DNA of 32,000 nt from Candidatus Saccharimonadota bacterium (GCA_001897305.1 MKSO01000001.1:1-32000); one strand, 5' to 3'. Numbered from the stretch's first letter, positions 10,408 to 31,739 are shown. Made by a program: numbers and translations. The notes: generated from the letters alone by a model not told the origin.

Positions 10408-10450
10408 GCAGAGATAGTTTACAACCCTTCATGTTTTTACAAACACCCAA

Positions 10451-10459: not shown

Positions 10460-10466
10460 GTAAACA

Positions 10467-14815: not shown

Positions 14816-14953
14816 CTAAACAGTTAAACGTGCGCGTCCTTTAAGACGGCGACGCTTTAGAACCTGACGTCCAGTCTTAGACGAAACACGTGCGCGGAAC
14901 CCGTGGGTACGAGCACGGTGACGAGTGTGTGGTTGGTGCGTTCGTTTTGGCAT
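14816..14953 (-). CDS. rpmH: 50S ribosomal protein L34
   Basis: Not in the ORF track because it is too short. Hand translation of the minus strand from ATG 14953 gives [45 protein letters not shown], with the stop at 14816-14818. This is the classic L34 sequence in the classic position upstream of rnpA. Confidence 0.9.
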
Positions 14954-14962
14954 ATCTTGGTT

Positions 14963-15059: not shown

Positions 15060-15164
15060 TTTTCCACAGGTTAACAGGGGTAGTTGTTAAATGTGGATAA
15101 CTAGACCCCTATACACGGGTGGCGATACTTATTTTATTTATAACCCCTTTATGGTTGTGGAAAA
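15060..15164. promoter_or_regulatory. DnaA-box cluster in the rpmH-dnaA intergenic region (oriC part and/or dnaA autoregulation)
   Basis: TTTTCCACA at 15060-15068 matches 8/9 of TTATCCACA. TGTGGATAA at 15092-15100 is a perfect box in reverse orientation. TGTGGAAAA at 15156-15164 matches 8/9 in reverse orientation. An AT-rich run, TACTTATTTTATTTATAA, lies at about 15126-15143. Confidence 0.7.
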
Positions 15165-16617: not shown

Positions 16618-16624
16618 TACTTCC

Positions 16625-16849
16625 CTATTCACAGCCTGGGTAAAAAATGTGTACAGCTTGTGTGTTGATAGTGCTGTAAGTAGTGCACATCTATACACAG
16701 GTACTTATTTTGACCAATACAGTACCTATGAAAAGCGTGTACAACCAGCCTTTTTCACCCATTCTTTAGACAGTTTTGCACCACGTATATACACACCCAT
16801 TTTTGCTTATTTACCCCTGTTACATAGTGGGTTATTCACAGTATACACA
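16625..16849 (+). promoter_or_regulatory. Cluster of five co-oriented degenerate DnaA-box-like 9-mers in the dnaA-dnaN spacer (candidate oriC core)
   Basis: The 9-mers are CTATTCACA 16625-16633, CTATACACA 16691-16699, ATATACACA 16787-16795, TTATTCACA 16832-16840 (8/9) and GTATACACA 16841-16849. The last two abut each other and are followed by an AT-rich stretch running to dnaN. Confidence 0.5.
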
Positions 16850-16902
16850 TACCCTACTATTAACAAGGTGAAAGAAATATAAAGAAAGGACTCATAATAA
16901 CA

Positions 16903-18003
16903 ATGGAACTCTCAATTACACAAGAAAACTTTGCTAGAGCCCTTTCATCTGTTGGACGAGTAGCTAGTTCAAAGACACAATTACCTATACTAAGTAACAT
17001 TCTTCTTAGAACAGATGGTAATCGCTTACTTGTTGCCGCAACCAACTTAGAGATTGCTACAACGCAGTATATAGGTGCAAAAATTGTAAAACCTGGTTCA
17101 ATTACTGTTCCAGCCCGTCTTATTTCAGAATTTGTCTCTAGTCTTCCTAAATCTACTATTGAACTAAAAGTTGTGGGAGAAAATATCCACATTAGTAGTG
17201 GAAAATATAAATCTATTATCAATGGGGTGGTAGCTGATGAATTCCCTGAACTCCCTACAATTAACGAGAATAACTCAGTAAGCTATTCAATAAACACTGA
17301 AGAATTTAAGCAAGCCGTTTCGCAGACAGTTATTACTGCAAGCTCAGATTCTACCCGCCCTGTACTTACCGGTGTCTATTGGCACTCACACGAAGGTTGG
17401 ATTTACCTTGCGGCCACAGATGGCTACCGCTTATCGGAACGCCGACTTGTTGAAACTAAGAGTGAAGTAGCAGCTATTATCCCTACACAAACCCTTCAAG
17501 AAGTATTGCGAACAATTGTGGATGACTCAGAGACTATAGATGTACTATTCGATGAAAGCCAAGTTCGTTTCCGTATTAATGATGCGGAAGTAATTAGTCG
17601 CCTCATTGATGGTAATTTCCCTGACTATCGCCAACTCATTCCTGCTCAGTCTGATATTACCGCGACAATGAATAAAACCGAATTCACCCGCGTAACAAAG
17701 ATAGCCGGTTTATTTGCCCGTGAATCAGGTGGAAGTGTGACAGTAACAATCGATAGTGATAAAAAAAGTGTCTCACTCCACTCTATTGCATCTGAATTAG
17801 GTGAAAACACTTCTGAGCTTGAGGCTGAAATTGTCGGTGACGGCCAAGTAACGCTCAATTCACGATACTTAACCGAGGCACTTGGAGTAATTGATGCCGA
17901 GACAATTTCATTCAGCTTTAGTGGTAAACTCTCGCCTGTTATTTTGCAATCTACTGCTAAAGATACGAATTACTATCACGTTATTATGCCCCTTAAAAGC
18001 TAA
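16903..18003 (+). CDS. dnaN: DNA polymerase III beta sliding clamp
   Basis: 366-aa ORF immediately downstream of dnaA. The sequence is typical of DnaN (LATDGYRLS, NFPDYRQLIP, and the C-terminal MPLK ending). Confidence 0.95.
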   Translation: MELSITQENFARALSSVGRVASSKTQLPILSNILLRTDGNRLLVAATNLEIATTQYIGAKIVKPGSITVPARLISEFVSSLPKSTIELKVVGENIHISSGKYKSIINGVVADEFPELPTINENNSVSYSINTEEFKQAVSQTVITASSDSTRPVLTGVYWHSHEGWIYLAATDGYRLSERRLVETKSEVAAIIPTQTLQEVLRTIVDDSETIDVLFDESQVRFRINDAEVISRLIDGNFPDYRQLIPAQSDITATMNKTEFTRVTKIAGLFARESGGSVTVTIDSDKKSVSLHSIASELGENTSELEAEIVGDGQVTLNSRYLTEALGVIDAETISFSFSGKLSPVILQSTAKDTNYYHVIMPLKS

Positions 18004-18014: not shown

Positions 18015-19055
18015 ATGACCGCGGTCAAACGACTCAAAGTAGCCCATATTCGCTCTCACGACGAGTATAGACTAGACCTTTCCCCGGAAGTAACGATTAT
18101 TACCGGTGCTAATGGTAGTGGAAAGACGAGTTTGCTTGAAGCGGTATATATAAGCCTGCAAGGCGGTTCTTTTAGAGGGAGTGATGGCGATATCCTTCAA
18201 AAAGAAAGCCCTTGGTGGCGTATTGACGTTACATTAGATGATGACCAAGAGCGTGTTATTAAATTTGACCCAACCAAAACTACTAGTCGTAAGCAGTTTA
18301 CAATCGATAATAAAACAACTGCTCGTATACCGGCTAAATTAAAACATCCAGTAGTATTATTTGAGCCTGAAGACCTGCGCTTGCTTCACGGCTCCCCTGC
18401 TCGTCGTCGCCAATTTATCGATCGCTTTATTACCCAATTAAATCCTCTTTACGGCACTTCACTGCGTAAATACGAACGAGCTCTTAAACAACGCAATAAC
18501 CTACTCAAAAGCGCTCATATAAGTGATGACCAGCTCTTTGCGTGGAATGTCGCCTTGGCTGAACACGGTAGCTATATTATTGAGCAGCGCATCGCTTTTA
18601 TTGAACAAATAAACCAGAATCTGGCTGAACTTTACAGGTCTATTGCTGGTACGCACGATGACGTATCAATTCATTACTCACACACCTATATTGGCGATAT
18701 TAAGCAAAAGTTATTAAATGACCTCCATCTTCATCTTGAACGTGACCGTTATCTTGGGAGTACTTCCGTTGGTCCTCACCGACACGATGTGTTGTTTGAA
18801 ATTAACACCTCCCCTGCCCTATCTGTTGCCTCTCGTGGTGAAGCACGTACAATCGTGTTAGCTTTGAAGTTTTTGGAAGTCGATATTATTGAACAACTTA
18901 CCGATAAAACACCTATTATCCTACTCGACGACGTCTTCTCTGAATTAGATGCCAGTCGTCAGCAATTACTTACCAGCCAATTAAAAGGCCACCAAATTAT
19001 TATTACTTCCGCAACAAGCCATGCGGGTGAACACTTACGCCACGTTAAGCTTTAA
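18015..19055 (+). CDS. recF: DNA replication and repair protein RecF
   Basis: 346-aa ORF. Walker A is ITGANGSGKTSLLEAV, the SMC-type signature region is present, and Walker B is ILLLDDVFSELD. It follows the dnaA-dnaN-recF order. Confidence 0.9.
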   Translation: MTAVKRLKVAHIRSHDEYRLDLSPEVTIITGANGSGKTSLLEAVYISLQGGSFRGSDGDILQKESPWWRIDVTLDDDQERVIKFDPTKTTSRKQFTIDNKTTARIPAKLKHPVVLFEPEDLRLLHGSPARRRQFIDRFITQLNPLYGTSLRKYERALKQRNNLLKSAHISDDQLFAWNVALAEHGSYIIEQRIAFIEQINQNLAELYRSIAGTHDDVSIHYSHTYIGDIKQKLLNDLHLHLERDRYLGSTSVGPHRHDVLFEINTSPALSVASRGEARTIVLALKFLEVDIIEQLTDKTPIILLDDVFSELDASRQQLLTSQLKGHQIIITSATSHAGEHLRHVKL

Positions 19056-19681
19056 CGGCCACCGTAGTGATATTCAATAGTATAATCGTCGGGGTTGAAG
19101 CCAAGTGAACGGATTTTTTCTAGAGCTTTTATTTTACCCGTGCCCTCCTGGTCGTAATAAACAACCGAGATGCCCTTAAGATCGTTTGTTTTTGCGGCAA
19201 TAATATAATCTGAAGTATTAAGCGGTAGGTACGCTTGAAGAACAGGTTTTGTATTAATCTGATCAGAGAATGATAAACACTCCCCTGTATTACATGTAAC
19301 TGATATATCACCATTAATAACACCATTATCTATTGTTTGAAGTTTTATTTTCCACGATACATCGCTATTATTTAGCTTAACTATAAATTCAGAAAACCAA
19401 GACGTCGATGAGTAGGTATATGAACCATCGGCAATAGTCGCATGGTAGACACTTTCGCTCGGGTCTTTAATAAATCTATAAAGGTAATTACCCAGATTGC
19501 CGAATGAGTCTGAAGAGATGTGATCTGTGTATTTAGAATAGTTATCAATAACAACCGTTTCTTTTGATTTTTGAGTTCCCGGCCCCTTATTTACGACTAA
19601 TGCAACAACAATGAGGGTGACACATAGTGCTATAAAAACAACTGTAGAGAGAATAATTATTTTTCTGGTTCGTGTATCCAT
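19052..19681 (-). CDS. Bitopic membrane protein (N-terminal TM anchor plus ~170-aa external domain), last gene of the T4SS-like operon; function unknown
   Basis: 209-aa ORF. A single hydrophobic helix, IIILSTVVFIALCVTLIVVALVV, follows a short basic N-terminus. It starts 1 nt after the hydrolase gene's stop. Its stop overlaps the recF stop (shared TTAA). Confidence 0.65.
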   Translation of the reverse strand: MDTRTRKIIILSTVVFIALCVTLIVVALVVNKGPGTQKSKETVVIDNYSKYTDHISSDSFGNLGNYLYRFIKDPSESVYHATIADGSYTYSSTSWFSEFIVKLNNSDVSWKIKLQTIDNGVINGDISVTCNTGECLSFSDQINTKPVLQAYLPLNTSDYIIAAKTNDLKGISVVYYDQEGTGKIKALEKIRSLGFNPDDYTIEYHYGGR

Positions 19682-19682
19682 A

Positions 19683-21059
19683 CTAGTTACCTATAAATTT
19701 AGCCATCTTTTTTGCCATTTCTCCAGCAATAGAGCTATCCTTTGGCGTCGCCATATTATTATATACGTAGCCATTATGGCTATTCTTGAATGCTTCAAAC
19801 GAAGGGAATTGATACACAGCTACGCGATGACCTGAATTATAAGTAAACTCTTTTGTGGAGCCAGGTACACTCCCGCTCCAGTTTGTTTCAAGACTTATAA
19901 GTGAGCCGTCCGTCCCGACTCCGACAATTGTTCCTGTGTGGCCAGGTTCGCCCGATATACTACCATCTCCAAATGACCATATTGAGAATGGCTGAATGTT
20001 AGATCCATCAGGTTTTGCGTTTGCGTAAACATCGAAATTAATAGCGGTTAATGTATTCGCAACATTAACACCATCCGGTATACCAGGTACTGCAAATGGT
20101 TGCGGTGCGGTTGTAACGGCCATCCAAGCCGCACCGGCCGTACAATACCCACTATCCCAATCACAATAAAAGCCGCTTTTTATAGAGTCACCACCACAGT
20201 AAATAGTACTCCAGTCGTCAGATAACTTCTTTGCCACAATCACTGCTTGATCCCAACTTAGTCCACCACCACTCACGCCACACCTAGAACTAGTGCTACC
20301 ACTCGCCCCGCCGCTATATTTCTCTAAGAAACCCTTAGCATTGTCGATACGATGAGTGAGCACTCCATGTCCAGGAATACGATCTGCCTCAGTAGGAACA
20401 TCACCCGACCTTTCTATGAGTGCGTGAAATACCATAGTTGAGCCATTTCCAGCCTGTGACTCTGACCTATTGTTGTTGAAAGATCCCCAGAAACTCGCTT
20501 TAGTGGTATCCCCCTCTACGGTTGTCTCGGCATTTACCTGTTCTTGCCAAGTCATTGCCCCGTACTCACCATCCCACAAGTAGTTTAATTGGAATAATAG
20601 AGCGGCATCATTATCGGATAGGTTTACTCCAGCGGCTGCAGCGGCACTCTCGAGTTTAGTTCGTCGATCATACGACCACTGAATAATCCCAAGACCAACC
20701 CCATTACTCTCAACCGCAGAGGCTCTAAAACCACTTTCGGCTTCAATATTCCCCATCGTCCCAGCGGCTGCTACTGGTGTTAAACCCCGGGCTGTGAAAT
20801 AATTCCAGGCTTTCTCTTCGTTATCGGCGCCAGTTAATGAAGTAGGTGCTGGGCCGGTTAAGTTACCACCAGCAGCAGAACAGACTGACCCACTACAGGG
20901 GTCATAAAAGAAGACGTCATTATTACTATAGAAATCTTTATCACACTTTTTAGCATAAGTATCTTGGGTGCTAGTAAGAGGAATAGAGGAAATGATAAAA
21001 ACAAGGCTAAAAATAGCTACAACAAAGGGTTTAATAGTCATTTTTATGGTGTGCTTCAT
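19683..21059 (-). CDS. Secreted or membrane-anchored peptidoglycan hydrolase: phage-tail-lysozyme-like domain plus C-terminal CHAP-like domain
   Basis: The motif AAAGTMGNIEAESGF...GLGIIQWSYDRR..L matches the 'phage tail lysozyme' family pattern. The C-terminus has a Cys...His pair in CHAP-like context (YCTAGAAWM ... EPGHTGTIVGV). The N-terminus carries a signal or anchor sequence. I place the start at ATG 21059 (458 aa), 5 nt after an AGGAG Shine-Dalgarno, rather than at the track's 21095. Confidence 0.8.
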   Translation of the reverse strand: MKHTIKMTIKPFVVAIFSLVFIISSIPLTSTQDTYAKKCDKDFYSNNDVFFYDPCSGSVCSAAGGNLTGPAPTSLTGADNEEKAWNYFTARGLTPVAAAGTMGNIEAESGFRASAVESNGVGLGIIQWSYDRRTKLESAAAAAGVNLSDNDAALLFQLNYLWDGEYGAMTWQEQVNAETTVEGDTTKASFWGSFNNNRSESQAGNGSTMVFHALIERSGDVPTEADRIPGHGVLTHRIDNAKGFLEKYSGGASGSTSSRCGVSGGGLSWDQAVIVAKKLSDDWSTIYCGGDSIKSGFYCDWDSGYCTAGAAWMAVTTAPQPFAVPGIPDGVNVANTLTAINFDVYANAKPDGSNIQPFSIWSFGDGSISGEPGHTGTIVGVGTDGSLISLETNWSGSVPGSTKEFTYNSGHRVAVYQFPSFEAFKNSHNGYVYNNMATPKDSSIAGEMAKKMAKFIGN

Positions 21060-21067
21060 CTCTACTC

Positions 21068-24000
21068 CTATTGTCCACTTGCCGACCAGTGCCATGGCTC
21101 AACCTCGTAATTATAAAAACCATATTGAGCTGCATTTGCCTGTAACCATTTATAAGCTTTATATTGAGCACCACCGATTCGACTACATTCCGACTCTGCA
21201 TTTGCGGCTGATCCCCATCCGGTTACACTATCGGCGCCAGCGCGACAGATGGTATCTTCACCAACCACCCCAATATCCGCTGCAACCCCTGTGGTGTGTT
21301 GAGATACATACCCATTACTAAATTCTAAACGTAACCCGTCTTTCAGTTCAAGGTTGACACCCTCACTGCGAGCAGTATCCATCATATTCATAATATTCGT
21401 TGAAACAACCGATGCTAATAAACTACTTCCGTTTTTGTGATCACCAGTGTAGTAAGGGATTTGACAGGTTCGTATTATTGCGCCTGTTGCAGGGCTATTG
21501 TTACTATCGGCTGTGATTGTAAACGCACCATTAGCTTCAGGTGTTCTGGCATCGCAGGCGTACTTTGAGTAGTCAACTCCTGGTGCTAATGTCCAGCCAT
21601 TCTTTGCACTTATTGCTCCATCGGGAGCACTGGTTGAGGGTGTGGTACTAGCGGCTTTATCTTCGTCGTCGTTGCCGCTTAGCATATTTTCAATTTGGTG
21701 ATCCATGTAATAAATACGCTGAGCTGCGCTTTGTTGGGCGCTACGATCACCCTCAACAGTTACGGTTGAAGAATTAGACTTATCATTCTTTGACTTATCT
21801 TTATCATCATTCGCAGCACAGTTCGAACCTTCATTTCCACATGTCGAGACGGTATCAGCTACAGTGGTGCTCGAAGACTCTACTGTACAGCCACTTATTG
21901 TCTCGAGGTCAGCATCTGCGCATTCTGATATTGTCGTGGAGAGCTCGGAATTTTTACCTAGCCCAAAGTTATCAAGGAGTGCATTTGGTTCGTAGGCTTC
22001 ACCGGTGTTTGGGTCTACTTGATCAGAAACAAGGTCGTACGCCGTATCTGGAGCCATATCTAAATATTCGGCAGGCATGCCAACCGCAGGTGTCCCAGCA
22101 ATAGTTACTGCAATATCGTCATCAATACCTAACATAGAGGCGTACCCATATTTAGCTTCAACTGGATCAATATCTGCTGATACTGAATTACCCAGCATAC
22201 TAAATGGTGAACTAAGAATTGATCCTATAGTTTTAAGGCTAGATGATATCATATTAGTTGAACCGGCTGTACTGATAGCAAGTTTAGACACTATACTTCC
22301 AAGGAAAGTGTATTGGCTTGATGTATCAAACGGACTGAGCGTGGCTATATCCTCTTCTTTATACTCATTATTAACGTCATCCATTGCAACCTTAAAGCCC
22401 TTTACTTGGCTTTTCTTTAACACAGCACCACCGCCACCAAGCGCCGTTAGTGAGAATGCTGCGAATAAGCCAACACCAAGTGCATCTCCAAGCTCGATAC
22501 CCTGTGCGTCGCCATATATATCGCCCAATGCATTTACTGCAAGGTCGTAAGCGCCGTTACCTATCGCATCGACTACACCCGTCTGTTCAAGTAGATTCAT
22601 AAGTCCATCGATGGCACCGAAGGTAATCGCAACCTTACCAACTGCCTGAAGAGCCTTTAGTGCCGCTGCGCCGATACCACCACTGGCCGCGCCGATTGCA
22701 GCGGTGATACCTGCGGATGCTATAGCTGCTTGTGGGCTATTAATGAGGTTACACGTTTCTTTTGTGCTAGCATTTAACTTCGAAGCTCCCTGTATAAAAT
22801 CTGTACTATACATTGAATATCCGGGAATATACTTGCTTGGTTTAAGTATAGAACCTGTACCGGCGCCGATTGCGGCGAGTAATATTGGTGAATCAAGTGC
22901 TGATTTCGTATCTTCTGCACCATCAACCTTATATTCATCCGTTAGAGATTTACCAAGAGCCGATACTTGTTCTGGCTTAGCGTCACCACTTCGTATCATT
23001 CCTCCAGCCGAGAGTATGAAGCCACTCGCTAATCCCACGGCTTGTGCTAATTGGATAGCTCGCTGAGTACCAGCAACAAAGGTTGGGATTCCAATCATCA
23101 TACATGCTCCAGATCCAATAGCAAGGATAGGATCTCCACCAGTCTTTTTTACCTTATCGGCACTCCGCTTTAATAATAGACGAACCCTATCTTTAAAAGT
23201 TTTCTTGACAGCTCCTTCTGATGTATCAGCCGCACCAACTTTTGTCGCTTCCGAAACCTTTTCTTTAACGTTGCTTTCTTTGAAGTCAGTATCAGCAGCT
23301 TTACCACCATCCTTCTTCATCCCCCACTTATCCATAATGCCCTTAATAAAGCGACCAGAATATGACAGATAACGCATATTATAGGCGGTCTTAAATAACT
23401 TTCTGAAAGCTGGGTTAGACTTATATTCGTTTACAAACTCGGATGCTGGTATGATTTTTTCGGTTGAGCCATTTGTAAATTTGTAATGGGTTGGATTTTC
23501 GGTCATATATCCGGTTCCCTTAATATCGACCGGATCCCCGCTTGCATTCACAGCTACGATTCCTTTGCCATCTTTAGCCATAGACTGTAGCATAATTTTC
23601 GGCATCTTTTTGTCGCGGCAAAGTGACAGCTTTGTATCGCAAGGCCCAGAGTCACTCATCTTAAGCTTAAGCTTCGCAATAAGACGCCGCTCCAGCATGG
23701 TGCCGCGACTATCGTTTTCGGCAGTTGCCCCTTGCTCGAGGCTTGGTATGAGCATCGTTGGCAGCCATCCGCCAAGAAGAAAGATGATAATTCCAATAAT
23801 TCCACCAACCCCGAGTATTGGGGATGACCGCTTAAGGTTAGCAACCGAAAGAAATTTAATTTTTGGCTTAGAACTTTCTGGAGTAGTGTTATCCTGCCAA
23901 GGGGTAGCCGGGGATCCTTCTGACTCTGCTTTTCGAGCTTTCTCTATGTTTTTATCTTCTTCTGAGCTATCGGCATTTTCCTGAAAGTTTCGCTCAAAAT

Positions 24001-24118
24001 CATCCATATTAATCGTGCCGCGCTGCTCGGAACCTAAAAGCTGGTCAGCGGCTTGCTGACTGCGGTTTAACTCTTCGTCCTGCTTCTGATCACCAGGTGT
24101 AAAAGTGGAAGTGGGCAT
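21068..24118 (-). CDS. Large polytopic membrane protein with a C-terminal M15 (VanY/LAS-type) zinc peptidase domain
   Basis: 1016-aa ORF. An acidic N-terminus is followed by TM segments such as ILGVGGIIGIIIFLLGGWLPTMLI and by Gly/Ala-rich hydrophobic segments around residues 330-560. The C-terminus carries SQHTTGVAAD (S-x-H-x-x-G-x-A-x-D) and EPWHW (E-x-x-H), the M15B signature. A GGAAGG Shine-Dalgarno lies 5 nt upstream. Confidence 0.8.
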   Translation of the reverse strand: MPTSTFTPGDQKQDEELNRSQQAADQLLGSEQRGTINMDDFERNFQENADSSEEDKNIEKARKAESEGSPATPWQDNTTPESSKPKIKFLSVANLKRSSPILGVGGIIGIIIFLLGGWLPTMLIPSLEQGATAENDSRGTMLERRLIAKLKLKMSDSGPCDTKLSLCRDKKMPKIMLQSMAKDGKGIVAVNASGDPVDIKGTGYMTENPTHYKFTNGSTEKIIPASEFVNEYKSNPAFRKLFKTAYNMRYLSYSGRFIKGIMDKWGMKKDGGKAADTDFKESNVKEKVSEATKVGAADTSEGAVKKTFKDRVRLLLKRSADKVKKTGGDPILAIGSGACMMIGIPTFVAGTQRAIQLAQAVGLASGFILSAGGMIRSGDAKPEQVSALGKSLTDEYKVDGAEDTKSALDSPILLAAIGAGTGSILKPSKYIPGYSMYSTDFIQGASKLNASTKETCNLINSPQAAIASAGITAAIGAASGGIGAAALKALQAVGKVAITFGAIDGLMNLLEQTGVVDAIGNGAYDLAVNALGDIYGDAQGIELGDALGVGLFAAFSLTALGGGGAVLKKSQVKGFKVAMDDVNNEYKEEDIATLSPFDTSSQYTFLGSIVSKLAISTAGSTNMISSSLKTIGSILSSPFSMLGNSVSADIDPVEAKYGYASMLGIDDDIAVTIAGTPAVGMPAEYLDMAPDTAYDLVSDQVDPNTGEAYEPNALLDNFGLGKNSELSTTISECADADLETISGCTVESSSTTVADTVSTCGNEGSNCAANDDKDKSKNDKSNSSTVTVEGDRSAQQSAAQRIYYMDHQIENMLSGNDDEDKAASTTPSTSAPDGAISAKNGWTLAPGVDYSKYACDARTPEANGAFTITADSNNSPATGAIIRTCQIPYYTGDHKNGSSLLASVVSTNIMNMMDTARSEGVNLELKDGLRLEFSNGYVSQHTTGVAADIGVVGEDTICRAGADSVTGWGSAANAESECSRIGGAQYKAYKWLQANAAQYGFYNYEVEPWHWSASGQ

Positions 24119-24151
24119 ATATACCTTCCATTATACCCCTAAAGGGGCCTT

Positions 24152-25987
24152 TTAGACCCCTGTTCCTGCTTGTTGAGATAAAGCTTGGGGATTAGTGTTA
24201 ATGAGTTGAGTTTCAGTTGGTGACGCCTGAATTTGAATATGCACATGGCTTTGCCCAGCAAAGAATAATCCTTGCCCAATTGGGAAGTTAGCGAGACGCT
24301 TCTTCTCCTCTTCGGTGAGCTTGAATACGTCAGACAATACATCGACAGCACTTGAAGACTGTTTCAAAAGAAGCTGCATGGACGTGTTTGATACAATTGC
24401 CCGCCCCATCTTACTACTCATGAAGTCTTCAACATCTTGCGTGATAGTAGTCAGCCCAAGGTAATATTTACGCGCACGCTTAGCAAGGCTAAACAAGAAG
24501 TTTGCCGAGTCGTCGTATTTCATCAGTTGCCAGGCCTCATCCACGATAAGCATGCGCTTTTTTTGTTCGGTGCGGGTAATATTCCAAATGTGGCTCAATA
24601 CAATATACATGGCAACCGGGCGAAGCTCATCTTCGAGGTCGCGAATATTAAACACGACCATTGGGTTGTTGATATCAATATTTGATTGCTGACTAAAAAT
24701 ACCGGCAAATGTACCCGTAGTGTATTTACGCAGGCGCTGCGCAAGTGAAGGGCCGCTCCCACCCATATGCACGAGCGTGTCGTAAAGGTCAGCGATGGTT
24801 GGTGGTGGTGAGTTGTGTGTGAGGGGGTCGCTGGTAATGCCAACGCGAGCATAGGTATCAATAAGCGCTTGGTCAAGGTCGGCCTCTTCAACGGGAGTAA
24901 GGGCGGCGACCTGTTGCCCTGTGGCGGCTACCTGGGTTCCACCCAACATTAACCTAAATAGTCCGTGGAGTGTCACAAGGTTAGCGCGCAGGGCGTCGTC
25001 TGCTTCCTCGGTGTCGATGACGCGCGGAAGATCAAATGGATTAATACGCGTTTGCGAATTAAGACTTAGGCGAATATAGGCCCCACCTACTGCGTCGGCT
25101 AATTTCTGGTATTCATTTTCTGGGTCGATGATGATAACTTCCGTGCCGGTCATCATACTGCGTAGCGCCTCGAGCTTCACAGTAAATGACTTACCTGCAC
25201 CGGACTTTGCAAATACCGCCATATTAGCGTTCTCAAGTTTAAAGCGGTCGAAAATAACCAAGCCGTTGTTGTGCATGTTGATACCATACAAAATGCCTTG
25301 GTTGTCGGTAAGGTCAGCACTGGTGAATGGGAAGCTGGTACTAATAGCACCCGTATTCATATTGCGGCGAATTTGAAGTTGGTCGGACATTTGCGGAATG
25401 GAACTATTAAGTCCTTGCTCTTGTTGTGATGAAGCAACCTTACTAAATACCATTTGCTGGCCAAAGATTGTTTCTACTTTTTGTTGCACAAAGTTAAGTT
25501 CATCCATGCTGTCTGCCCACAAGGTTACATACAGACCAAAACGGAAGAAACGCTCGGCACCAACCTGAATTTGGTCACGCAGTTCCTCGGCGTCGTTAAT
25601 AGCTGCCTCAAGGGCTGGGTCACGAACACGTCCCTTCTCACTGTTAATAGCCGCCGAGGCTTCGAGTTGAGTCACTTTTTTACGAAGGTTATTGAGGACT
25701 ACCTGACTTTCAACTGGGTATATGTACATACTAATATCGAGTACCTCATCGATATTCACAAGTGGACTAAGCCAACCAGTGTAGATAGAACGAGGATAGC
25801 CATATACGTATATCGTTCGGCCATATTTTGTGCCAAGCCTAAAATATGAAGCATGAATTTCAATACTACTTGGGGCAATAAGGTCACGAAGTGTAGAAAC
25901 ACCTTTAAGGAATGCCTGCTCAACTTCAGCCTGCTCGCGTGCGCGCTGCTCGGCGGCAATATCGACGGCGGATTTTTGCTTCGCCAT
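24152..25987 (-). CDS. virB4: VirB4-family type IV secretion ATPase (Gram-positive TraE/TcpF/PrgJ/ConE type)
   Basis: 611-aa ORF. Walker A is FAKSGAGKSFTVK and Walker B is RMLIVDEAWQLM. The N-terminal segment YGRTIYVYGYPRSIYTGWLSPL is typical of this family. The start overlaps the upstream stop (TAATG). Confidence 0.9.
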   Translation of the reverse strand: MAKQKSAVDIAAEQRAREQAEVEQAFLKGVSTLRDLIAPSSIEIHASYFRLGTKYGRTIYVYGYPRSIYTGWLSPLVNIDEVLDISMYIYPVESQVVLNNLRKKVTQLEASAAINSEKGRVRDPALEAAINDAEELRDQIQVGAERFFRFGLYVTLWADSMDELNFVQQKVETIFGQQMVFSKVASSQQEQGLNSSIPQMSDQLQIRRNMNTGAISTSFPFTSADLTDNQGILYGINMHNNGLVIFDRFKLENANMAVFAKSGAGKSFTVKLEALRSMMTGTEVIIIDPENEYQKLADAVGGAYIRLSLNSQTRINPFDLPRVIDTEEADDALRANLVTLHGLFRLMLGGTQVAATGQQVAALTPVEEADLDQALIDTYARVGITSDPLTHNSPPPTIADLYDTLVHMGGSGPSLAQRLRKYTTGTFAGIFSQQSNIDINNPMVVFNIRDLEDELRPVAMYIVLSHIWNITRTEQKKRMLIVDEAWQLMKYDDSANFLFSLAKRARKYYLGLTTITQDVEDFMSSKMGRAIVSNTSMQLLLKQSSSAVDVLSDVFKLTEEEKKRLANFPIGQGLFFAGQSHVHIQIQASPTETQLINTNPQALSQQAGTGV

Positions 25988-26895
25988 TATTGCAGCCCTC
26001 CAGTGGGAGCTGGCCCTGGTGCTTTTTTAACAAAAGTAGTTGCTAGGTTGTCAAAATCGCCCAATGGCTGACGCAGTGCAGTATCGGGGTTGTAGTAGTT
26101 ATAGTACAGCTCCCCTAGTGATTTAGTGTCAAGCTGAACACACTGCACGCCGATCTGGAAAAGCCCAGCCATCACCGAATCAACTCGGTTTTTAATTTCA
26201 TCTTTGGCTTTTTGGTAGGTCGAGGCGTCAATATGGGTAATATTGTTTTGAGGACGAGCAAAGAGCTTACCGAAGAAACCCTTCCCCTGCTCTAATAGTT
26301 TGGCTGCGTCTCCGTTGGGGAAATAGGGAATAACAATGTAAAAAGATTTCTCCATAATGTTCGCCTCTTGTGATAGGGCATCAATAAAGCTGATGTAATC
26401 GTCCATAAGAACACCAAGAAGCATATTATCTTGTGAGCGTCGGGTATCAACGAGCTTGTCGATATATGGACCGATATCAACGCGTTGTGAACGAACCAGG
26501 ATTTGCACTGGGAAATTCAACGAGTTTAGGAAGTTTTGGTAACTATACTCTACCCCCTCCCTTTCGCGGTCGCTCATAAGGTCGAAATTGATTGATTTAC
26601 AAGCTACTACAGCTCTGAATGTACCATCATTCATAATAACCATACTGTCGCGCAGCTCTGATAGCTGTAACGTGCTTTGGGTTGAACTGGTGTTTTTTGG
26701 TGTTGGCTTGACGTTGGGATCGGCACTCCCAAGAGGGCCTGCAGTTTGAGGCATGACCTGAGGGGCTGGTTGGCCGGGTGCTTGCATGGCTTGACCTGGA
26801 ACAGAATAAGCCTGTTGCTGAGCAGGCTGAGGAACACCCGGTTGGGGTTGATTATACGGAGAATTATTAGGCGGCATACCCTCTGAAAATCCCAC
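25987..26895 (-). CDS. Hypothetical protein with a Pro/Gln-rich N-terminus and a ~220-aa globular domain, translationally coupled to the VirB4-like gene
   Basis: 302-aa ORF. Residues 1-75 are low-complexity (P/Q/A). No TM segment is obvious. The position between the PrgI-like and VirB4-like genes is fixed by tight spacing. Confidence 0.7.
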   Translation of the reverse strand: MGFSEGMPPNNSPYNQPQPGVPQPAQQQAYSVPGQAMQAPGQPAPQVMPQTAGPLGSADPNVKPTPKNTSSTQSTLQLSELRDSMVIMNDGTFRAVVACKSINFDLMSDREREGVEYSYQNFLNSLNFPVQILVRSQRVDIGPYIDKLVDTRRSQDNMLLGVLMDDYISFIDALSQEANIMEKSFYIVIPYFPNGDAAKLLEQGKGFFGKLFARPQNNITHIDASTYQKAKDEIKNRVDSVMAGLFQIGVQCVQLDTKSLGELYYNYYNPDTALRQPLGDFDNLATTFVKKAPGPAPTGGLQ

Positions 26896-26921
26896 TCCTT
26901 TAGGCGATACTATCTATCAAA

Positions 26922-27968
26922 TTATCGAAGCGAAATGACCACTTCACCAGATTCCTCTTCGGCCTTCTTCTTTAAGCGGTTGGCCTCGTGAGCAATCGTT
27001 TCGATAGATAAATCGGCGTTGTTTGCAAGGTTAATTATACCAGCAGAGGGTACAGAATCGCTAGTGGTTGTAGTAGTTTCTTTTGTTTCAGTAGGCACGG
27101 GAGTATCAATCTCCGCCTGATGAGCCGTATCGTTAAGGGGTTGAATGACGCTTTGCTGGAACTCTGGGTATGGATTAAAGTGTGGCTGTGGCGCAAGTTG
27201 CTGGGCCATTTGTGTTAGGAGCGGATCCTCGGCGGTTGGTTGTGTTACCGTTTGTACCGGCGCAGCGGGCTGGGCAAAGGCCGCAGGTGTAGTAACTTGG
27301 GGCTCGGGTTGTGTGGGTACTACTTGCTGTGCAGGAGTTACAGGTACCACCACGGGTACCGGTGCTGGTACTTGTGTCGCTTGTAGCATCCTTTGGCGGG
27401 CTTCTTCATGCATTCTCTCGGTACTTTGTGACATCATTTGGTCGAAGTTTTGGGCAATTGAGGTTGAAGTATCAAGGATATCGGTGGCCCCTTGTGCCTC
27501 AAGGTAAGCGTCGTTGTTCATAGCAGTACCTACCCCACCAGCCACACCTCTAATAGCCCAGCCTTGAGTGTCAACGATATTGGCGAGGTAATTCAAGCGT
27601 TGAGCGGCTTCGTTTTGTGATAAATCTTTTGTTCGCTTCACCTCGATTGTTTTTGGAGCGGTAATTTCAATAAGAGTCTCTACGCCCTCACCGTCCCATA
27701 TACGACGGTGGGGTTTTAAGTAAAATGAGACGATAGCTGCTAGATATATTTCCATTGGCTGATCTTTGCGTAGGGGTAAAGCCAAGGCGCCGAAGAAAAT
27801 AATAATAGGTAGTGGAATAATGGCTAGCCCAATAAACAACTGAGCAAGCCCCCAAGCTATTAAAATGAACCCAGCCACAATAATTAGGTAGATGAATTGA
27901 CGAAAGCTAAACGGACCGATGAGTTTATCATCTGCTTCGACATCTTGAGGGACTTTATAGGTTGCCAT
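26922..27968 (-). CDS. PrgI-family (VirB3-like) T4SS membrane protein with a long C-terminal extension
   Basis: 348-aa ORF. The N-terminus ATYKVPQDVEADDKLIGPFSFRQFIYL is followed by two TM helices, which matches the PrgI/TcpE-type pattern. Residues ~190-300 are a P/Q/V/T/A-rich low-complexity region. Confidence 0.7.
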   Translation of the reverse strand: MATYKVPQDVEADDKLIGPFSFRQFIYLIIVAGFILIAWGLAQLFIGLAIIPLPIIIFFGALALPLRKDQPMEIYLAAIVSFYLKPHRRIWDGEGVETLIEITAPKTIEVKRTKDLSQNEAAQRLNYLANIVDTQGWAIRGVAGGVGTAMNNDAYLEAQGATDILDTSTSIAQNFDQMMSQSTERMHEEARQRMLQATQVPAPVPVVVPVTPAQQVVPTQPEPQVTTPAAFAQPAAPVQTVTQPTAEDPLLTQMAQQLAPQPHFNPYPEFQQSVIQPLNDTAHQAEIDTPVPTETKETTTTTSDSVPSAGIINLANNADLSIETIAHEANRLKKKAEEESGEVVISLR

Positions 27969-27989
27969 AAATTAAGTATATCAGTCTAG

Positions 27990-30521
27990 TTATGGGTGTC
28001 TTGATATGTTTATTATACTTGGGCTATTCTTGCCGATTTTCTTATTGAGTACTTCATCGGAAAGAGCGTCCTGGGCATTTGATATAGTTTGTGCTCTTTC
28101 ACTTGCGCTAACGTTTGCAAGCTGGTCATGTATAAATGAAAGCTCGTCTTTGTCTCCAGTTGCAATTTTTTCTGCTGAGTATGCTCCAGCTTTAATCGCC
28201 TCTTGTGCAAGCGTTTCGGTGTTAACCGCCTTACCTTCTCTTATTGCACCCAGTGCCGCCCCACCAACGTAGCCCGGTCTATTAGATGATGAAGCAAGTG
28301 AATCTGCTAAGTGTGCTCGAATTGAGGTGTCTGATGAATTCCCGACAGTGTCAATAAGTGAGCGTGTGCTGTTGTGATCACCTGTTTGGATGATCGAACT
28401 GATGGCCGCTTTCTGAGTGGCCGTATCTGATTTTATTGTCTTTCCGTTATGTAAAACAGAACCACCTTTTGCAAGTTGAGTCATTTGATCTAAAGATAGG
28501 CCCAGTTTGTCTATAGTAGCCTTGGCTGCTGTAACTTCTTCAGCTTCTATTTTTGCATTAATACGCTCACCTAACCTGCTTTGCTCTGTACCAAACTTAC
28601 CCGTTCTGTCGTTGAGTCGACTATTGAGTGCTGAACTGGCGTTACGCCCCCAGTTAAGGGGGTTTCTGTTTGAGCCTTTATAGGTACCACCTAATATCTG
28701 GGCACGTCTGATCTTCGCTTGCTGACCCCTAAATTGTTGTAATTGACCAAGCTTGGATGTATCTTTAACCTTACCCCCAATGCGGCCAGTTGCTTTGGAG
28801 CTAAGATTTGAAATCTTAGCTCCAATACTCCCAGCGGCACTTAAAGAACCCTTCAAGAGACTAGGTACGACAAACAAAGGGAGAGCTGCCACGCCAACGG
28901 CAACAATTTGCATCATTACATTATCTCCAGAAGCGTCTTTTATAACATTAGCAGCGAGTGTTGATGCGCCAAATACCACAGCAATGATTGGGAATACCAT
29001 AAGCAGAGCGAAATACATCTTATACCACTTCTTAAACCATTGTTCGGTATTTGGTAGAAGAAACGCCACAAATGCTAGCGGAGAAATAATGGTAAGTAAT
29101 ACGATAAGCGCCGTACGGGCTACTAGAATAAGTACGATAAGAATCAAAGCAAGTAGTACAGCAAGTAGTACGGGCATCGTTACGGCCATAGCAACACCAA
29201 TAGCACCCGCAACAACACTCGCAACTAAAACTGCAATACCAAGCCCATTTGAACTTGCATCTCCTTTGCCTGAAATATCTCCTGCAATTTGAACGTAAGA
29301 GTTGCTCAGAAGACTATTGAGTGAATATCCAAGAATATTACTAAGGTCTACCGCTATTTGACATATAAAGAACGATACGTTCACTAGTATTGCCGCAATC
29401 ACCAACCTTGGTAGCATTTTCTTTACGCCATAGTTTGTAACACCCTGTCCTGTTAGCTGTGAAAATATAATAATAAGAAAAGCAATAACAAATGCTACGT
29501 TTGCAATATTACGCATTGTTGACCAAGCTGCTCTAATAGCACTATTGCTAAGTACGTCACTCTTCGTCTCTAGAAAAGTCTCCGATAGAAAAGAAAAGGC
29601 ATTGTCTGCAACGCTCCCTAGGAAGTTCATAACTGGGCAAACCAACCAACCAATACCCTCTACCCCACAGGACGTTGTTGGCTCGGCTGTAGTTGGTGTC
29701 GGGGTAGCAGCTTCTTCGGCTTTATCTCCCGCTGCGGTAACGGAGGCGGCGATATTGGTGAGACTTACGCCCTTTGCCTCGAGTAGTGTTACTACTGCGT
29801 CCTTAGTTACACCGTTGCCGATCTTTGAGGACATACAGGTTGCAAACCCAGTTTTCATGGTTTTCTCGTACTCTTCGGGCGATGCTGATGCTGTATTTAC
29901 ATTTGCGGTACTTGTTCTCTTTCCCCAACATTCGTACACCAAATTTTTCCATCCGGCTTCACCACACGAAGATTGCACCTCTACTCCACCAACGCCACTC
30001 GGACAATTATAAGCAACCCATTTGTTCTTGAGTGGATCAAGGGTATCGCCAAATTGAGAGTACAATTCAGTAGCCTCCGCGCTAGCACCAGCTTGTTCAA
30101 CGGCATTTTTGCCGCTCCATCCCTTAATATCTATAGTACTAGTTGTGGTTCCATCAACACATCTGGGTCGAGAATCGCTACTTACATTCTGTTTTGTTAA
30201 CTTAGCGGTGCCGCCCGATAAAACTATTTTATTTGTTCCATCGTGACAAACGGAAGCGGCGGCTTGTCCACCGCCGGTTTTAATTTGTGGGCCATTGTAC
30301 GTAATACCCCCGTCGGTACTGGTGTAGCTGTAGGTTACGCCAGATTTGTCGCAATCTGGACTCACGTACTCAATCTTTGTGGAGTCTATATAGCGATAAC
30401 AAGAGCTCGCCGCATTTGCTGGCTTTGTTATAGAGGTAGCTAGAAAAACGGAAGCAATTAGTGCAAGAAAAAGCAAACCTACGAAATGACGAACTTTTAT
30501 ATGACGAATAAAATAAGGCAT
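27990..30521 (-). CDS. VirB6/TrbL/TcpH-like polytopic T4SS channel protein with an N-terminal Cys-rich ectodomain and a C-terminal hydrophilic domain
   Basis: 843-aa ORF. It has a signal peptide (VGLLFLALIASVFLATSITKPANA) and a ~260-aa region with 10 Cys. About 6-7 TM helices span residues ~285-560, and the tail is ~280 aa and hydrophilic. Size and layout resemble TcpH/PrgH-class proteins. Assignment is by architecture and context, not by a motif. Confidence 0.65.
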   Translation of the reverse strand: MPYFIRHIKVRHFVGLLFLALIASVFLATSITKPANAASSCYRYIDSTKIEYVSPDCDKSGVTYSYTSTDGGITYNGPQIKTGGGQAAASVCHDGTNKIVLSGGTAKLTKQNVSSDSRPRCVDGTTTSTIDIKGWSGKNAVEQAGASAEATELYSQFGDTLDPLKNKWVAYNCPSGVGGVEVQSSCGEAGWKNLVYECWGKRTSTANVNTASASPEEYEKTMKTGFATCMSSKIGNGVTKDAVVTLLEAKGVSLTNIAASVTAAGDKAEEAATPTPTTAEPTTSCGVEGIGWLVCPVMNFLGSVADNAFSFLSETFLETKSDVLSNSAIRAAWSTMRNIANVAFVIAFLIIIFSQLTGQGVTNYGVKKMLPRLVIAAILVNVSFFICQIAVDLSNILGYSLNSLLSNSYVQIAGDISGKGDASSNGLGIAVLVASVVAGAIGVAMAVTMPVLLAVLLALILIVLILVARTALIVLLTIISPLAFVAFLLPNTEQWFKKWYKMYFALLMVFPIIAVVFGASTLAANVIKDASGDNVMMQIVAVGVAALPLFVVPSLLKGSLSAAGSIGAKISNLSSKATGRIGGKVKDTSKLGQLQQFRGQQAKIRRAQILGGTYKGSNRNPLNWGRNASSALNSRLNDRTGKFGTEQSRLGERINAKIEAEEVTAAKATIDKLGLSLDQMTQLAKGGSVLHNGKTIKSDTATQKAAISSIIQTGDHNSTRSLIDTVGNSSDTSIRAHLADSLASSSNRPGYVGGAALGAIREGKAVNTETLAQEAIKAGAYSAEKIATGDKDELSFIHDQLANVSASERAQTISNAQDALSDEVLNKKIGKNSPSIINISRHP

Positions 30522-30544
30522 AATCTGATCAAATTATGCCTTAT
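30513..30544 (-). promoter_or_regulatory. Perfect 12-bp inverted repeat (8-nt loop) that contains the start codon of the VirB6-like gene
   Basis: Plus-strand ATAAGGCATAAT (30513-30524) and ATTATGCCTTAT (30533-30544) are exact reverse complements. In the minus-strand mRNA the 3' arm is ATT-ATG-CCT-TAT (Met-Pro-Tyr), and the 5' arm carries the only AAGG in the 48-nt spacer. Confidence 0.45.
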
Positions 30545-30569
30545 TTGTGCAGATAAATAAAGGTTATGC

Positions 30570-31739
30570 TTAACCTAAGTTGTATGGAGCGTCTGCACGA
30601 CTAGGGTCTAGAACTTGGGGTGCTTGCCTGCCAAATGCTACGACGTCATCACTGCCCGCTATAAGATTATAGAGGCCAACTATTCTGAAGTCGTTTTGTT
30701 TGGTCCATTCGTATGTAATAACTGGATATGACGTGTCGCCGAATATGTCCTTCCCTTGAAACTCAACAGAAGCTTCGTTGTAGGTGCCATTTGACCACAC
30801 AGTACCAGAGGTCTCACGTGTGATATGGTCTAGATCTCCAAGTATTGGAATTGATGGCGTAGTCGCTCCATCGAAAAGCTCAGACAAGATAGTGTGTGCA
30901 TCGTGTGTAGTATTACCCGATGTATCGAGTCGTTGAGATGTCATACATGTAAGCATATCTTTTGCAATTTGAACGTATTGAGGATTAGACTTGTCGGTAT
31001 ATAGTTTGTATACAAGATTTAACCGATTCATAACAAAGTCATTAATCTTTTGTCCATCCCAAAGTTCCATTACTTCACGACGCTCAATAGGGGCTATACC
31101 GTTTGCAACGAACGTTTGCTCACACGCATATTCTTTAGTATCTGGGTCAGTATATGCGTCATTTGGGTTAACGGGGACTTTCTTGTTCTCCCAGTTGTCA
31201 AATAATGCGGTGTCAACGATAACGTTTGATGTTTGTGCCTCAGGAGTCTTTAATGGTGTACTATCAGGGGTTGGCGCGACGGCTTCAGGAGTTGTGCTTG
31301 GTGCCACAGACGCCTCACTTGTTGCTTTAGGGTCGGTTTTTGGAGGTTCATTATCTTTATTATCAGCTGCAACCTTTACTCCCACTAACGTACCACCTAC
31401 AGCTAATGCAAGTCCTGCAACACCTGCAATGATACCGTTACGTACACGGTTACTTTTTGGTGCACTTTCACCATTGGTTTTTGGTTCTGTAACAGGAGGG
31501 ATAATTGGTGGTTCGGCTACTTTAGAATCTACAACATCGTCGATTGACGGCATGTTCTCGGGAAGGGTCGCTGGACTATGAGGAATGTTATCGAGTTGAA
31601 TATCTTCGAAAGCGCGAAGAGGGGTCTCACTAAATTCTGTAGGCGGAGTTTCGCGCATCGGCTTGTCGACATTACCACTATGGCCTGCTGTTACTTCAGG
31701 TGCTTGAGAATTTTGTGGTGTTGGGTACTCTTTGTCCAT
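30570..31739 (-). CDS. Bitopic membrane protein (Pro-rich cytoplasmic N-terminus, one TM, Pro/Thr-rich linker, ~220-aa external domain); first gene of the T4SS-like operon
   Basis: 389-aa ORF. The single TM helix is GIIAGVAGLALAVGGTLVGV, at about residue 102. An AAGGAAC Shine-Dalgarno lies 8 nt upstream. About 260 bp of AT-rich non-coding DNA lie upstream (31740-32000). Confidence 0.7.
   Translation of the reverse strand: MDKEYPTPQNSQAPEVTAGHSGNVDKPMRETPPTEFSETPLRAFEDIQLDNIPHSPATLPENMPSIDDVVDSKVAEPPIIPPVTEPKTNGESAPKSNRVRNGIIAGVAGLALAVGGTLVGVKVAADNKDNEPPKTDPKATSEASVAPSTTPEAVAPTPDSTPLKTPEAQTSNVIVDTALFDNWENKKVPVNPNDAYTDPDTKEYACEQTFVANGIAPIERREVMELWDGQKINDFVMNRLNLVYKLYTDKSNPQYVQIAKDMLTCMTSQRLDTSGNTTHDAHTILSELFDGATTPSIPILGDLDHITRETSGTVWSNGTYNEASVEFQGKDIFGDTSYPVITYEWTKQNDFRIVGLYNLIAGSDDVVAFGRQAPQVLDPSRADAPYNLG

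Follow-up and report, generated by a model that had tools for sequence, protein, structure and literature searches.

In the cultured epibiont S. epibionticum ML1, an "apparent" type IV secretion system (T4SS), SEML1_0006-0019, lies immediately after dnaA-dnaN-recF and is essential for epibiotic growth as judged by transposon-insertion sequencing (Tn-seq; Wang et al. 2023, PMC10633639). Its composition is Gram-positive-like, with an essential pilin array and no coupling or relaxase protein in the cluster (PMC10633639). A Patescibacteria-wide clade of VirB4 ATPases, related to the MPF-FATA machinery, has also been described, in which VirB4 is accompanied by TrsD, PrgI/VirB3, VirB6 and 2-11 VirB2-like pilins, and whose genes often lie near dnaA, dnaN and rnpA (Quinonero-Coronel et al. 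2025, PMC12102498). A 2025 review treats the Saccharibacteria/Patescibacteria system as a new T4SS type (PMC12857230), and a 2024 perspective calls its role "completely unknown" (PMC11665869). Here we analyze a cluster of eight genes in a 32,000-nucleotide stretch of DNA from a Candidatus Saccharimonadota bacterium (GCA_001897305.1, MKSO01000001.1:1-32000), which as a whole is referred to as the window. We consider it very likely that this locus is a conserved, chromosomal, origin-proximal Saccharibacteria T4SS of the Patescibacteria VirB4 clade, that it derives from monoderm MPF-FATA machinery, and that it serves the interface between epibiont and host and is not self-transmissible.

The system itself is already known. 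The locus is one more orthologue and opens no new question, and the view taken in a first-pass annotation of the window, that most subunits of such systems remain unassigned, is out of date (PMC10633639, PMC12102498, PMC12857230). The locus is nevertheless useful as a clean and complete comparative example, in which a split VirB4 occurs together with two wall hydrolases, an array of six pilins and a bitopic form of the variable subunit encoded upstream of VirB6, which we term the slot subunit. What we add is minor and consists of a VirB4 that is more conserved than DnaA, pilins resembling those of Mycoplasma integrative and conjugative elements (ICEs), a similar architecture on a Bacillota megaplasmid and actinobacterial relatives of the slot subunit.

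Comparison with the S. epibionticum T4SS

The locus is the orthologue of SEML1_0005-0019, an assignment based on synteny, protein sizes and shared family matches, no ML1 sequences having been compared. The supplementary tables of the ML1 study contain counterparts of almost every gene found here, with similar sizes and fold assignments (PMC10633639). In both organisms the cluster lies directly after dnaA-dnaN-recF and is convergent on them, and the lengths of the proteins (given as amino acids (aa) in ML1 and here) agree closely for the PEGA-like protein (211 and 209), the protein with a DD-peptidase fold (about 1100 and 1016), VirB4 (612 and 611) and the TrsD-like protein (293 and 302). The two loci also share a protein that combines lysozyme and Cys-protease domains, PrgI and a VirB6-like protein, followed by a divergent pilin array, Hsp20, ComFC and tRNA-Ser in the order of SEML1_0014-0022. 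Among the individual genes, SEML1_0005, an essential "PEGA domain" protein, is the counterpart of our 209-aa protein, SEML1_0006 is that of the 470-aa hydrolase and SEML1_0007, which is essential, is that of the 1016-aa protein (PMC10633639). The ML1 locus differs in having an extra 249-aa gene adjoining recF, a second VirB6-like gene (SEML1_0013) and two lysozyme-like domains in its lysozyme protein. In addition, its slot protein has 278 aa and is Tat/NTF2-like, in contrast to the bitopic protein of 389 aa found here; this positional equivalent, SEML1_0012, is described as NTF2/TraM-like, with a match to pIP501 TraM, and is non-essential (PMC10633639). Nothing essential separates the locus from the Patescibacteria-clade T4SS in general: VirB4, TrsD, PrgI/VirB3 and a pilin array are all present, along with a putative VirB6 (by a weak match), there is no relaxase or type IV coupling protein (T4CP) near virB4, and dnaA, dnaN and rnpA are nearby.

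All eight open reading frames (ORFs) of the cluster were confirmed. Coordinates are positions in the window, and values past 32000 are counted as if the window continued. The genes occupy the minus strand from 31739 to 19052 with gaps, in the order of transcription, of 48, 21, 26, -1, 33, -28 and 1 nt, and their lengths, their tight packing and the TAATG stop/start overlap that joins the 302-aa gene to the 611-aa gene at 25987 were all found again where the first-pass annotation had placed them; the overlap can be read directly in the sequence (CAATAATGGCG). The eight genes converge on the plus-strand genes dnaA-dnaN-recF, such that the 3' ends of the 209-aa gene and recF overlap by 4 nt.

The VirB4 ATPase and the TrsD-like protein

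The 611-aa protein (24152-25987, minus strand) matches the NCBIfam model of the CD1110-family VirB4 with an E value of 1e-112 (377.7 bits against a cutoff of 325) over model positions 176-744, and it matches the crystal structure of the VirB4 C-terminal domain (PDB 4AG5) with an E value of 2.4e-52. The Walker A (AKSGAGKS) and Walker B (MLIVDEAW) motifs are both intact. We assign the protein on these matches as a true VirB4, made up of the linker and the C-terminal motor domain, which is the signature energiser of a T4SS. The first-pass annotation had called the ATPase VirB4-like and had named an FtsK/HerA-type enzyme as the alternative that would overturn this call; because of the CD1110-family and 4AG5 matches, that alternative does not apply.

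The 302-aa protein (25987-26895, minus strand, GTG start), listed in the first-pass annotation as an unknown, was found where it had been reported and can now be given a family. It matches the NCBIfam TrsD model with an E value of 3e-4, below the family cutoff, and positions 18-178 of the VirB4_CagE model with an E value of 7e-4, and a match to PF26593 (TraC-like) is present in the precomputed annotation. When the 302-aa and 611-aa proteins were fused in silico, the product gave a single colinear match to VirB4_CagE over positions 19-728, with 130 bits as opposed to 115 bits for the ATPase alone. By these profile matches the 302-aa protein is assigned as TrsD-like, a detached N-terminal domain of VirB4. 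Since the ATPase match begins only at position 176, the 302-aa protein covers the N-terminal part and the fusion is colinear, the VirB4 of this locus appears to be encoded by two translationally coupled genes. The VirB4 is 36-38% identical to the nearest plasmid VirB4 and 30-38% identical to the plasmid-borne set, with 38% as the maximum. As judged by identity (81-92% to its Saccharibacteria relatives, see below, and at most 38% to plasmid sequences), it falls in the Patescibacteria-specific clade and not among the conjugative VirB4s.

PrgI/VirB3 and VirB6-like proteins

The 348-aa protein (26922-27968, minus strand), whose gene is two genes upstream of virB4, matches Pfam PrgI through residues 5-90 (E value 2.3e-11, 44.5 bits against a cutoff of 27), in agreement with its earlier designation as PrgI/VirB3-like. 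It has two predicted transmembrane (TM) segments and a long C-terminal extension of low complexity. The 843-aa protein (27990-30521, minus strand) was designated VirB6/TcpH-like, a call favored by its topology and by nearly full-length coverage of Pfam TrbL (profile positions 24-210 of 215), and one that stays weak because the score lies just under the cutoff (E value 5.8e-5, 23.4 bits against 25.9). A TrbL_3 match present in the precomputed annotation was not reproduced by our own scan. The predicted topology consists of an N-terminal signal anchor, a Cys-rich extracytoplasmic domain, a bundle of five TM helices (residues 339-553) and a cytoplasmic C-terminal domain of about 290 aa. The sub-threshold match and the fitting topology weakly suggest that this protein is an extended VirB6-like polytopic channel subunit.

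Predicted wall hydrolases

Two proteins of the cluster are predicted to act on peptidoglycan. The C-terminus of the 1016-aa protein (21068-24118, minus strand) has a weak match to Pfam VanY (E value 1.9e-5), and the zinc motifs SxHxxGxAxD and ExxH are readable in its sequence. In a Foldseek search with an AlphaFold2 (AF2) model of the protein (mean pLDDT 70) the only match was LdcB (4MPH), with a probability of 1.0 and an E value of 0.05. The C-terminus is predicted on this basis to be an M15 (VanY/LAS) peptidoglycan peptidase. The first-pass description of a polytopic protein ending in an M15 peptidase thus holds for its end and not for its topology, as there are one strong and two weak hydrophobic segments: a disordered cytoplasmic N-terminus is followed by a TM segment (residues 101-119) and by an all-helical region of about 650 aa that contains the two weaker, Gly/Ala-rich hydrophobic segments. 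The C-terminal module varies among 28 homologues, being VanY in some, M23 in others and missing in the rest, while the helical N-terminal region is kept. The N-terminal part, about 800 aa, gave no match in PDB, BFVD, Pfam or PHROGs, and a tape-measure-like or VirB6-like identity for it was dropped when searches of PDB, Foldseek (PDB and BFVD) and PHROGs gave no support.

The 470-aa protein (19683-21095, minus strand; an alternative annotated start at an internal ATG, 21041, gives 452 aa) had been described as a lysozyme+CHAP hydrolase. Its match to Pfam Phage_lysozyme2 is strong (E value 2e-20), that to CHAP is weak (E value 5.6e-3), and in PHROGs it matches the lysozyme modules of tape-measure proteins and endolysins. 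These matches predict a secreted or anchored peptidoglycan hydrolase that would be the functional analogue of VirB1.

Bitopic proteins of the wall zone

The last gene of the cluster (19052-19681, minus strand) encodes a 209-aa protein with a TM segment at residues 8-26 and an extracytoplasmic beta-sandwich (PEGA-like) domain. By iterated hidden Markov model (HMM) searches, full-length relatives were found at the same position in the loci of 45 species, of which 13 match PEGA (best E value 1e-7) and 11 match CarboxypepD_reg, itself a beta-sandwich family related to PEGA. The first gene of the cluster (30570-31739, minus strand) encodes the 389-aa slot subunit, which has a cytoplasmic tail of about 100 aa, a TM segment (residues 103-121), a Pro/Thr-rich linker and an extracytoplasmic C-terminal domain of about 220 aa with two invariant Cys residues. 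Only 3-4 homologues of the whole protein were found in a search of 5.8e9 proteins. A HMMER search with the C-terminal domain (30573-31232) over 1.84e9 representatives gave 17 matches, which are mostly lipoproteins of 270-304 aa with two invariant Cys residues, and three of these are encoded upstream of VirB6, in the same slot, in other Saccharibacteria T4SS loci. From these matches we define the C-terminal domain as a small unannotated family that recurs upstream of VirB6. With the TrsD-like and PEGA-like proteins and this recurring family, three of the five proteins that were counted in the first-pass annotation as lacking a confident family can now be assigned.

Relatives of the slot domain extend outside the Saccharibacteria. 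One, with 37% identity, is on a contig with 64% G+C beside Lsr2, DUF6907 and a T4CP-like gene, a contig that from its gene content looks like an actinobacterial mobile element, and another is in the chromosome of Zhihengliuella halotolerans. Actinobacteria are the host phylum of cultured Saccharibacteria, and the actinobacterial relatives could be explained by shared MPF-FATA ancestry or by gene flow between host and epibiont. A further contig, of 32.6 kb with 49% G+C, carries a slot-family gene upstream of a VirB6 very similar to that of the window (E value 2e-121), HTH_31 and DUF6907 genes and a gene for a 799-aa beta-rich protein, with no visible VirB4; it may represent a further, partial T4SS module or else a Saccharibacteria mobile element. 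The slot-family contigs with 49% and 64% G+C have DUF6907 in common.

The 389-aa family has no sequence match in Pfam or PDB, and the matches of a 14-member profile to these databases were confined to signal or linker regions. An AF2 model of the slot protein, built from 4 homologues, has a mean pLDDT of 53, with block means of about 50-86, mostly 65-86, for residues 173-360, and its C-terminal domain consists of helices followed by a four-stranded sheet. Attempts to link slot proteins across species by BLAST or jackhmmer left mostly singletons and tied the C-terminal domain of the 389-aa protein to only one of 80 loci. An earlier slot family of 7 loci was discarded, as its grouping had been driven by the N-terminal tail and the TM segment.

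The pilin array beyond the window

The locus was matched exactly to Saccharibacteria contigs of 0.92 and 1.05 Mb, and the sequence for 10 kb past the end of the window was read from such a match (record L001). Six genes for VirB2-like pilins (133, 146, 96, 126, 137 and 134 aa) lie at the window-equivalent positions 33311-37246 (L001 4494-8429), that is, 1.3-5.2 kb past the window end. They match PF18895 with E values from 7e-13 to 3e-3 and share 23-59% pairwise identity. Five of them form a divergent array that begins 1.3 kb past the window end (about 33311-35322), after which come Hsp20, a ComFC-like gene, tRNA-Ser, the sixth pilin and another tRNA-Ser; the two tRNA-Ser genes are 5-5.7 kb past the window end, and genes for Crp, HIT and SPOUT proteins are also within the 10 kb. 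The first-pass annotation reported no pilin-sized ORF and no tRNA/att boundary. Both the absence of pilins and that of tRNA genes are true of the window only and are artefacts of where it ends, given that pilins and tRNA-Ser genes were found past it; as to att repeats, no direct repeat of 12 nt or more joins the recF side to these 10 kb.

Five of the six pilins also match the NCBIfam model "Mbov_0395 family pilin-like conjugal transfer protein" of Mycoplasma ICEs, with E values from 4e-9 to 4e-4 that are below threshold. Co-option from other T4SS classes has been considered as the origin of the Patescibacteria pilins (PMC12102498), whereas these matches suggest that such pilins are not foreign to MPF-FATA. 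Because of them and of the Pontibacillus cluster described below, VirB2-like pilins seem not to be limited to the Patescibacteria among monoderm T4SSs.

Conservation across Saccharibacteria

With one genome taken per species, at least 590 relatives of the VirB4 were found, and the best 80 were analyzed. These 80 are 81-92% identical to the VirB4 of the window and nearly all carry the label Saccharibacteria or Saccharimonadales, a few having generic or other labels of metagenome-assembled genomes. The comparison of synteny at the recF-downstream locus that the first-pass annotation had suggested was run over these 80 species, and the same order recurs. The common architecture consists of the pilins; then the slot gene, VirB6 (often duplicated), PrgI, TrsD, VirB4, the large peptidase protein, lysozyme and one or two PEGA-like genes; and then recF, dnaN and dnaA. 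VirB6 homologues are present in 60 of the 80 loci, often in two copies, and PrgI in 73, directly upstream of TrsD and VirB4.

Conservation drops steeply between the cytoplasmic motor and the exposed subunits. Median identity is 84% for VirB4, 62% for TrsD (75 species), 46-47% for PrgI, 31-38% for VirB6 and 27% for the peptidase protein; relatives of the PEGA-like protein are found by profile only, and the slot protein is scarcely detectable across loci. VirB4 identity exceeds that of DnaA (63%) and DnaN (61%) in all 44 comparable loci, a margin that is somewhat inflated because the loci were chosen by VirB4 similarity. Such a gradient fits a constant motor combined with host-facing parts that are under diversifying pressure.

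Related monoderm and diderm systems

The MPF-FATA systems (CTn2/CD1110 type, pGO1/pSK41 Trs, pCF10 Prg and pIP501 Tra) have in common with the locus a CD1110-family VirB4, PrgI and TrsD homologues and multi-domain wall hydrolases, and they likewise have no outer-membrane core subunits. PrgK of pCF10 carries LytM, SLT and CHAP domains in one protein, and this trio of metallopeptidase, glycosidase and CHAP is spread over two proteins here. In contrast to those systems, to which its VirB4 is 30-38% identical, the locus does not have the relaxase and VirD4-like T4CP that stand beside their virB4; its VirB4 is split, it has a pilin array, and it is a chromosomal locus with a fixed place beside oriC and vertical inheritance.

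The same architecture was found on a megaplasmid of Pontibacillus sp. ALD_SL1 (NZ_CP062975.1, 351.8-361.4 kb), where two pilin-like genes, a VirB6-like, a PrgI-like and a TrsD-like gene (E value 3e-29) are followed by a 621-aa VirB4 (E value 8e-123, 36% identity) and a 1050-aa protein that ends in an M23 peptidase, with no relaxase or T4CP within 12 kb. The Pontibacillus cluster differs in belonging to a Bacillota replicon of 898 kb and in lying beside flagellar genes rather than oriC. A profile comparison of its 1050-aa protein with the 1016-aa protein aligned only the peptidase domain, and the N-terminal part was without detectable homology. The pilin-bearing, TrsD-split architecture, to the extent that these profile matches define it, suggests a distribution that is not confined to the Patescibacteria and qualifies the published statement that MPF-FATA systems lack VirB2-like pilins. 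Among diderm systems, ComB of H. pylori, Ptl of Bordetella and VirB of Brucella are likewise driven by VirB4 without a T4CP in cis and provide precedents for both import and export. They differ in having VirB7/VirB9/VirB10 cores and are related to the locus in sequence only via VirB4, VirB3, VirB6 and VirB2.

Absence of transfer genes and the function of the system

The window, which includes 19 kb on the origin side, contains no relaxase, T4CP or integrase, as the first-pass annotation had noted, and neither do the 10 kb beyond it on the pilin side. The window contains no tRNA genes, and no direct repeat of 12 nt or more joins the recF side to the far side (10 kb, the tRNA genes included). 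For the related loci, unannotated ORFs of at least 250 aa lying up to 10 kb from virB4 in the 80 species were clustered and 59 representatives of the clusters scanned, and no relaxase, T4CP or integrase is among the best 25 of the 33 Pfam families matched, the 8 weakest being left aside. Two genuine conjugative loci that carry the nearest plasmid VirB4s have a relaxase and a VirD4-like T4CP right beside virB4, and such genes would therefore have been recognized here.

These results bear directly on whether the locus is an ordinary ICE, intact or decayed, with its relaxase, coupling protein and integrase located outside the window. Its core genes do derive from monoderm conjugation systems, its G+C content (0.449) is higher than that of the left part of the window (0.407), and the tRNA-Ser genes are found 5-5.7 kb past the window end. 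However, the adjoining 10 kb, where according to the first-pass annotation the presence of transfer genes or att repeats would make this an ordinary ICE, contains the pilins, Hsp20, ComFC, Crp, HIT and SPOUT, with no integrase, relaxase, T4CP or att-like repeat. The tRNA-Ser genes do not mark an element, as there is no repeat of 12 nt or more and the G+C content of the cluster equals that of the region beyond the window (0.447). Moreover, dozens of species whose DnaA proteins are only about 63% identical have the locus in the identical position between recF and pilin/Hsp20, from which it follows that the locus is ancient and vertically inherited, and relaxases are known from only 103 Patescibacteria genomes (PMC12102498). 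We regard the ICE reading as already largely refuted and its truth as extremely improbable. A role in DNA uptake for natural transformation, in the manner of the H. pylori ComB system, would agree with the lack of a T4CP in cis, as in ComB, and with the adjoining ComFC gene. Transformation of S. epibionticum, however, needs ComEC and type IV pili, and a comEC mutant loses competence and grows normally (PMC10633639, PMC12857230); since the T4SS is essential for growth, its essential role is not transformation, and we consider a ComB-like function here to be very unlikely. The preference stated in the first-pass annotation, given a reduced and probably host-dependent genome, for a host-interaction machine over conjugation agrees both with the absence of transfer genes in the range searched and with the essentiality of the orthologous S. 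epibionticum cluster for epibiotic growth (PMC10633639).

What such a host-interaction machine would transfer, and in which direction, can be stated only tentatively. We lean slightly toward export, of proteins that would breach the host envelope or manipulate it, over import of host macromolecules. In the import alternative, which we regard as somewhat unlikely, the system would be a conduit or "feeding tube" in which a VirB4-powered channel and a VirB2-like pilus pull RNA, DNA or other macromolecules of the host into an epibiont that is unable to make nucleotides. The lack of a T4CP or relaxase in cis parallels uptake systems that have no T4CP, and ComFC lies inside the pilin region. VirB4 also has weak matches to the DNA-import ATPases CedB and CedD, but these are far below the family cutoffs and are confined to the P-loop region. 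Because ComEC is dispensable for the growth of S. epibionticum, nucleotides have to be taken up in some other way, for which the T4SS has been put forward (PMC11665869, PMC12102498). In addition, a preprint from 2026 describes a Patescibacterium feeding on the RNA of its host, with tubules at the interface "that may be T4SS pili". On the other hand, neither RNA import nor the withdrawal of material from another living cell is known for any T4SS, the cluster is without a nuclease or nucleic-acid-binding subunit, and the T4CP homologue of S. epibionticum is scored as essential in the Tn-seq table, which fits export (PMC10633639). The published statements on this distant homologue (SEML1_0142, three genes from gyrB) do not agree, as it is entered as ES/ES/ES in Table S1 of PMC10633639 and is said in PMC12102498 not to have been found essential, and the discrepancy matters for the choice between export and import. 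Were import true, this would be the first T4SS dedicated to the acquisition of nutrients from another living cell, with the host range set by its hypervariable parts, namely the slot and PEGA-like subunits and the pilins.

Our proposal that the locus encodes a T4SS of the epibiont-host interface can be given a hypothetical mechanism. A VirB4 hexamer, formed from the TrsD-like N-domain and the ATPase encoded by the two coupled genes, would dock on PrgI/VirB3 and the extended VirB6 in the cytoplasmic membrane. The M15 peptidase protein and the lysozyme+CHAP protein would open the cell wall locally, where the slot subunit and the PEGA-like protein may scaffold or target the apparatus, and the VirB2-like pilins would assemble into a tube outside the cell that extends to the host bacterium. 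By analogy with S. epibionticum, growth on the host is probably impossible here without the T4SS. Few machines are known on which the epibiotic life of the candidate phyla radiation strictly depends, and the Saccharibacteria T4SS is among them.

Several points weigh against this proposal. Essentiality is extrapolated from one cultured relative to an organism known here from its genes alone, and we know of no Saccharibacteria T4SS for which a pilus has been shown. Two of the subunit assignments, VirB6 and the CHAP domain of the 470-aa protein, draw on profile matches below threshold. A VirB8/TraM-like fold of the 389-aa slot protein was not demonstrated by AF2 and Foldseek: with the low-confidence model nothing in PDB was significant, the best E value being 0.058 and scattered NTF2-like folds having E values of 0.5-0.9. 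Scans for sigma-70 promoters and intrinsic terminators gave nothing above the shuffled expectation, and for that reason a single operon is deduced from gene spacing only. In one other species of Saccharibacteria the segment with the slot gene, VirB6 and the pilins runs opposite to that with PrgI, TrsD, VirB4, the peptidase and the lysozyme, and hence the eight genes do not form one transcription unit in all species. Finally, the search for transfer genes covered the window and 10 kb, and a distant T4CP, comparable to SEML1_0142 of S. epibionticum, or a relaxase could be located elsewhere in the genome; indeed, Saccharibacteria genomes probably do encode a T4CP homologue elsewhere.

Origin context and neighboring genes

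The location of the cluster directly after recF and beside the replication origin, as described in the first-pass annotation, is borne out by Pfam assignments of dnaA (15223-16617), dnaN (16903-18003) and recF (18015-19055), all on the plus strand. Upstream of dnaA, three DnaA-box-like sites are clustered within 105 nt (15060-15164); one of them is perfect and the other two have a single mismatch each. The number of DnaA boxes in the window as a whole is not above chance, and only this local trio is suggestive; judged from its sequence and position, the cluster is likely to be oriC, and the last T4SS gene is about 3.9 kb away. Genes for rnpA, yidC and jag are also upstream of dnaA (Pfam), and an apparent rpmH at about 14820-14955 on the minus strand was read by eye and was not confirmed by any search. 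The spacer between dnaA and dnaN is filled by an ORF of 97 aa (16589-16882, plus strand) that overlaps the end of dnaA by 29 nt and has no Pfam match. In many related loci this spacer holds ORFs of 85-105 aa, three of which are detectable by BLAST at about 37% identity, and the ORF could be a small conserved gene or one that persists in an origin-associated spacer.

On the other side of the cluster, 193 nt upstream of the 389-aa gene and on the same strand, is a gene for a soluble protein of 305 aa that is cut by the window end, so that its 3' end is at 31933-32000 (L001 8890-9807, minus strand, TAG stop at 31935-31933). The protein has no match in Pfam or PHROGs and a relative in one other species only, and the gene is not a core part of the T4SS. 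The first part of the window (1-12908) is a surface-polysaccharide cluster which, together with two proteins without a family match (592 aa at 175-1953 and 305 aa at 6332-7249), encodes five GT4-type glycosyltransferases and one of GT2 type, GtrA and a Wzm/Wzt ABC exporter.

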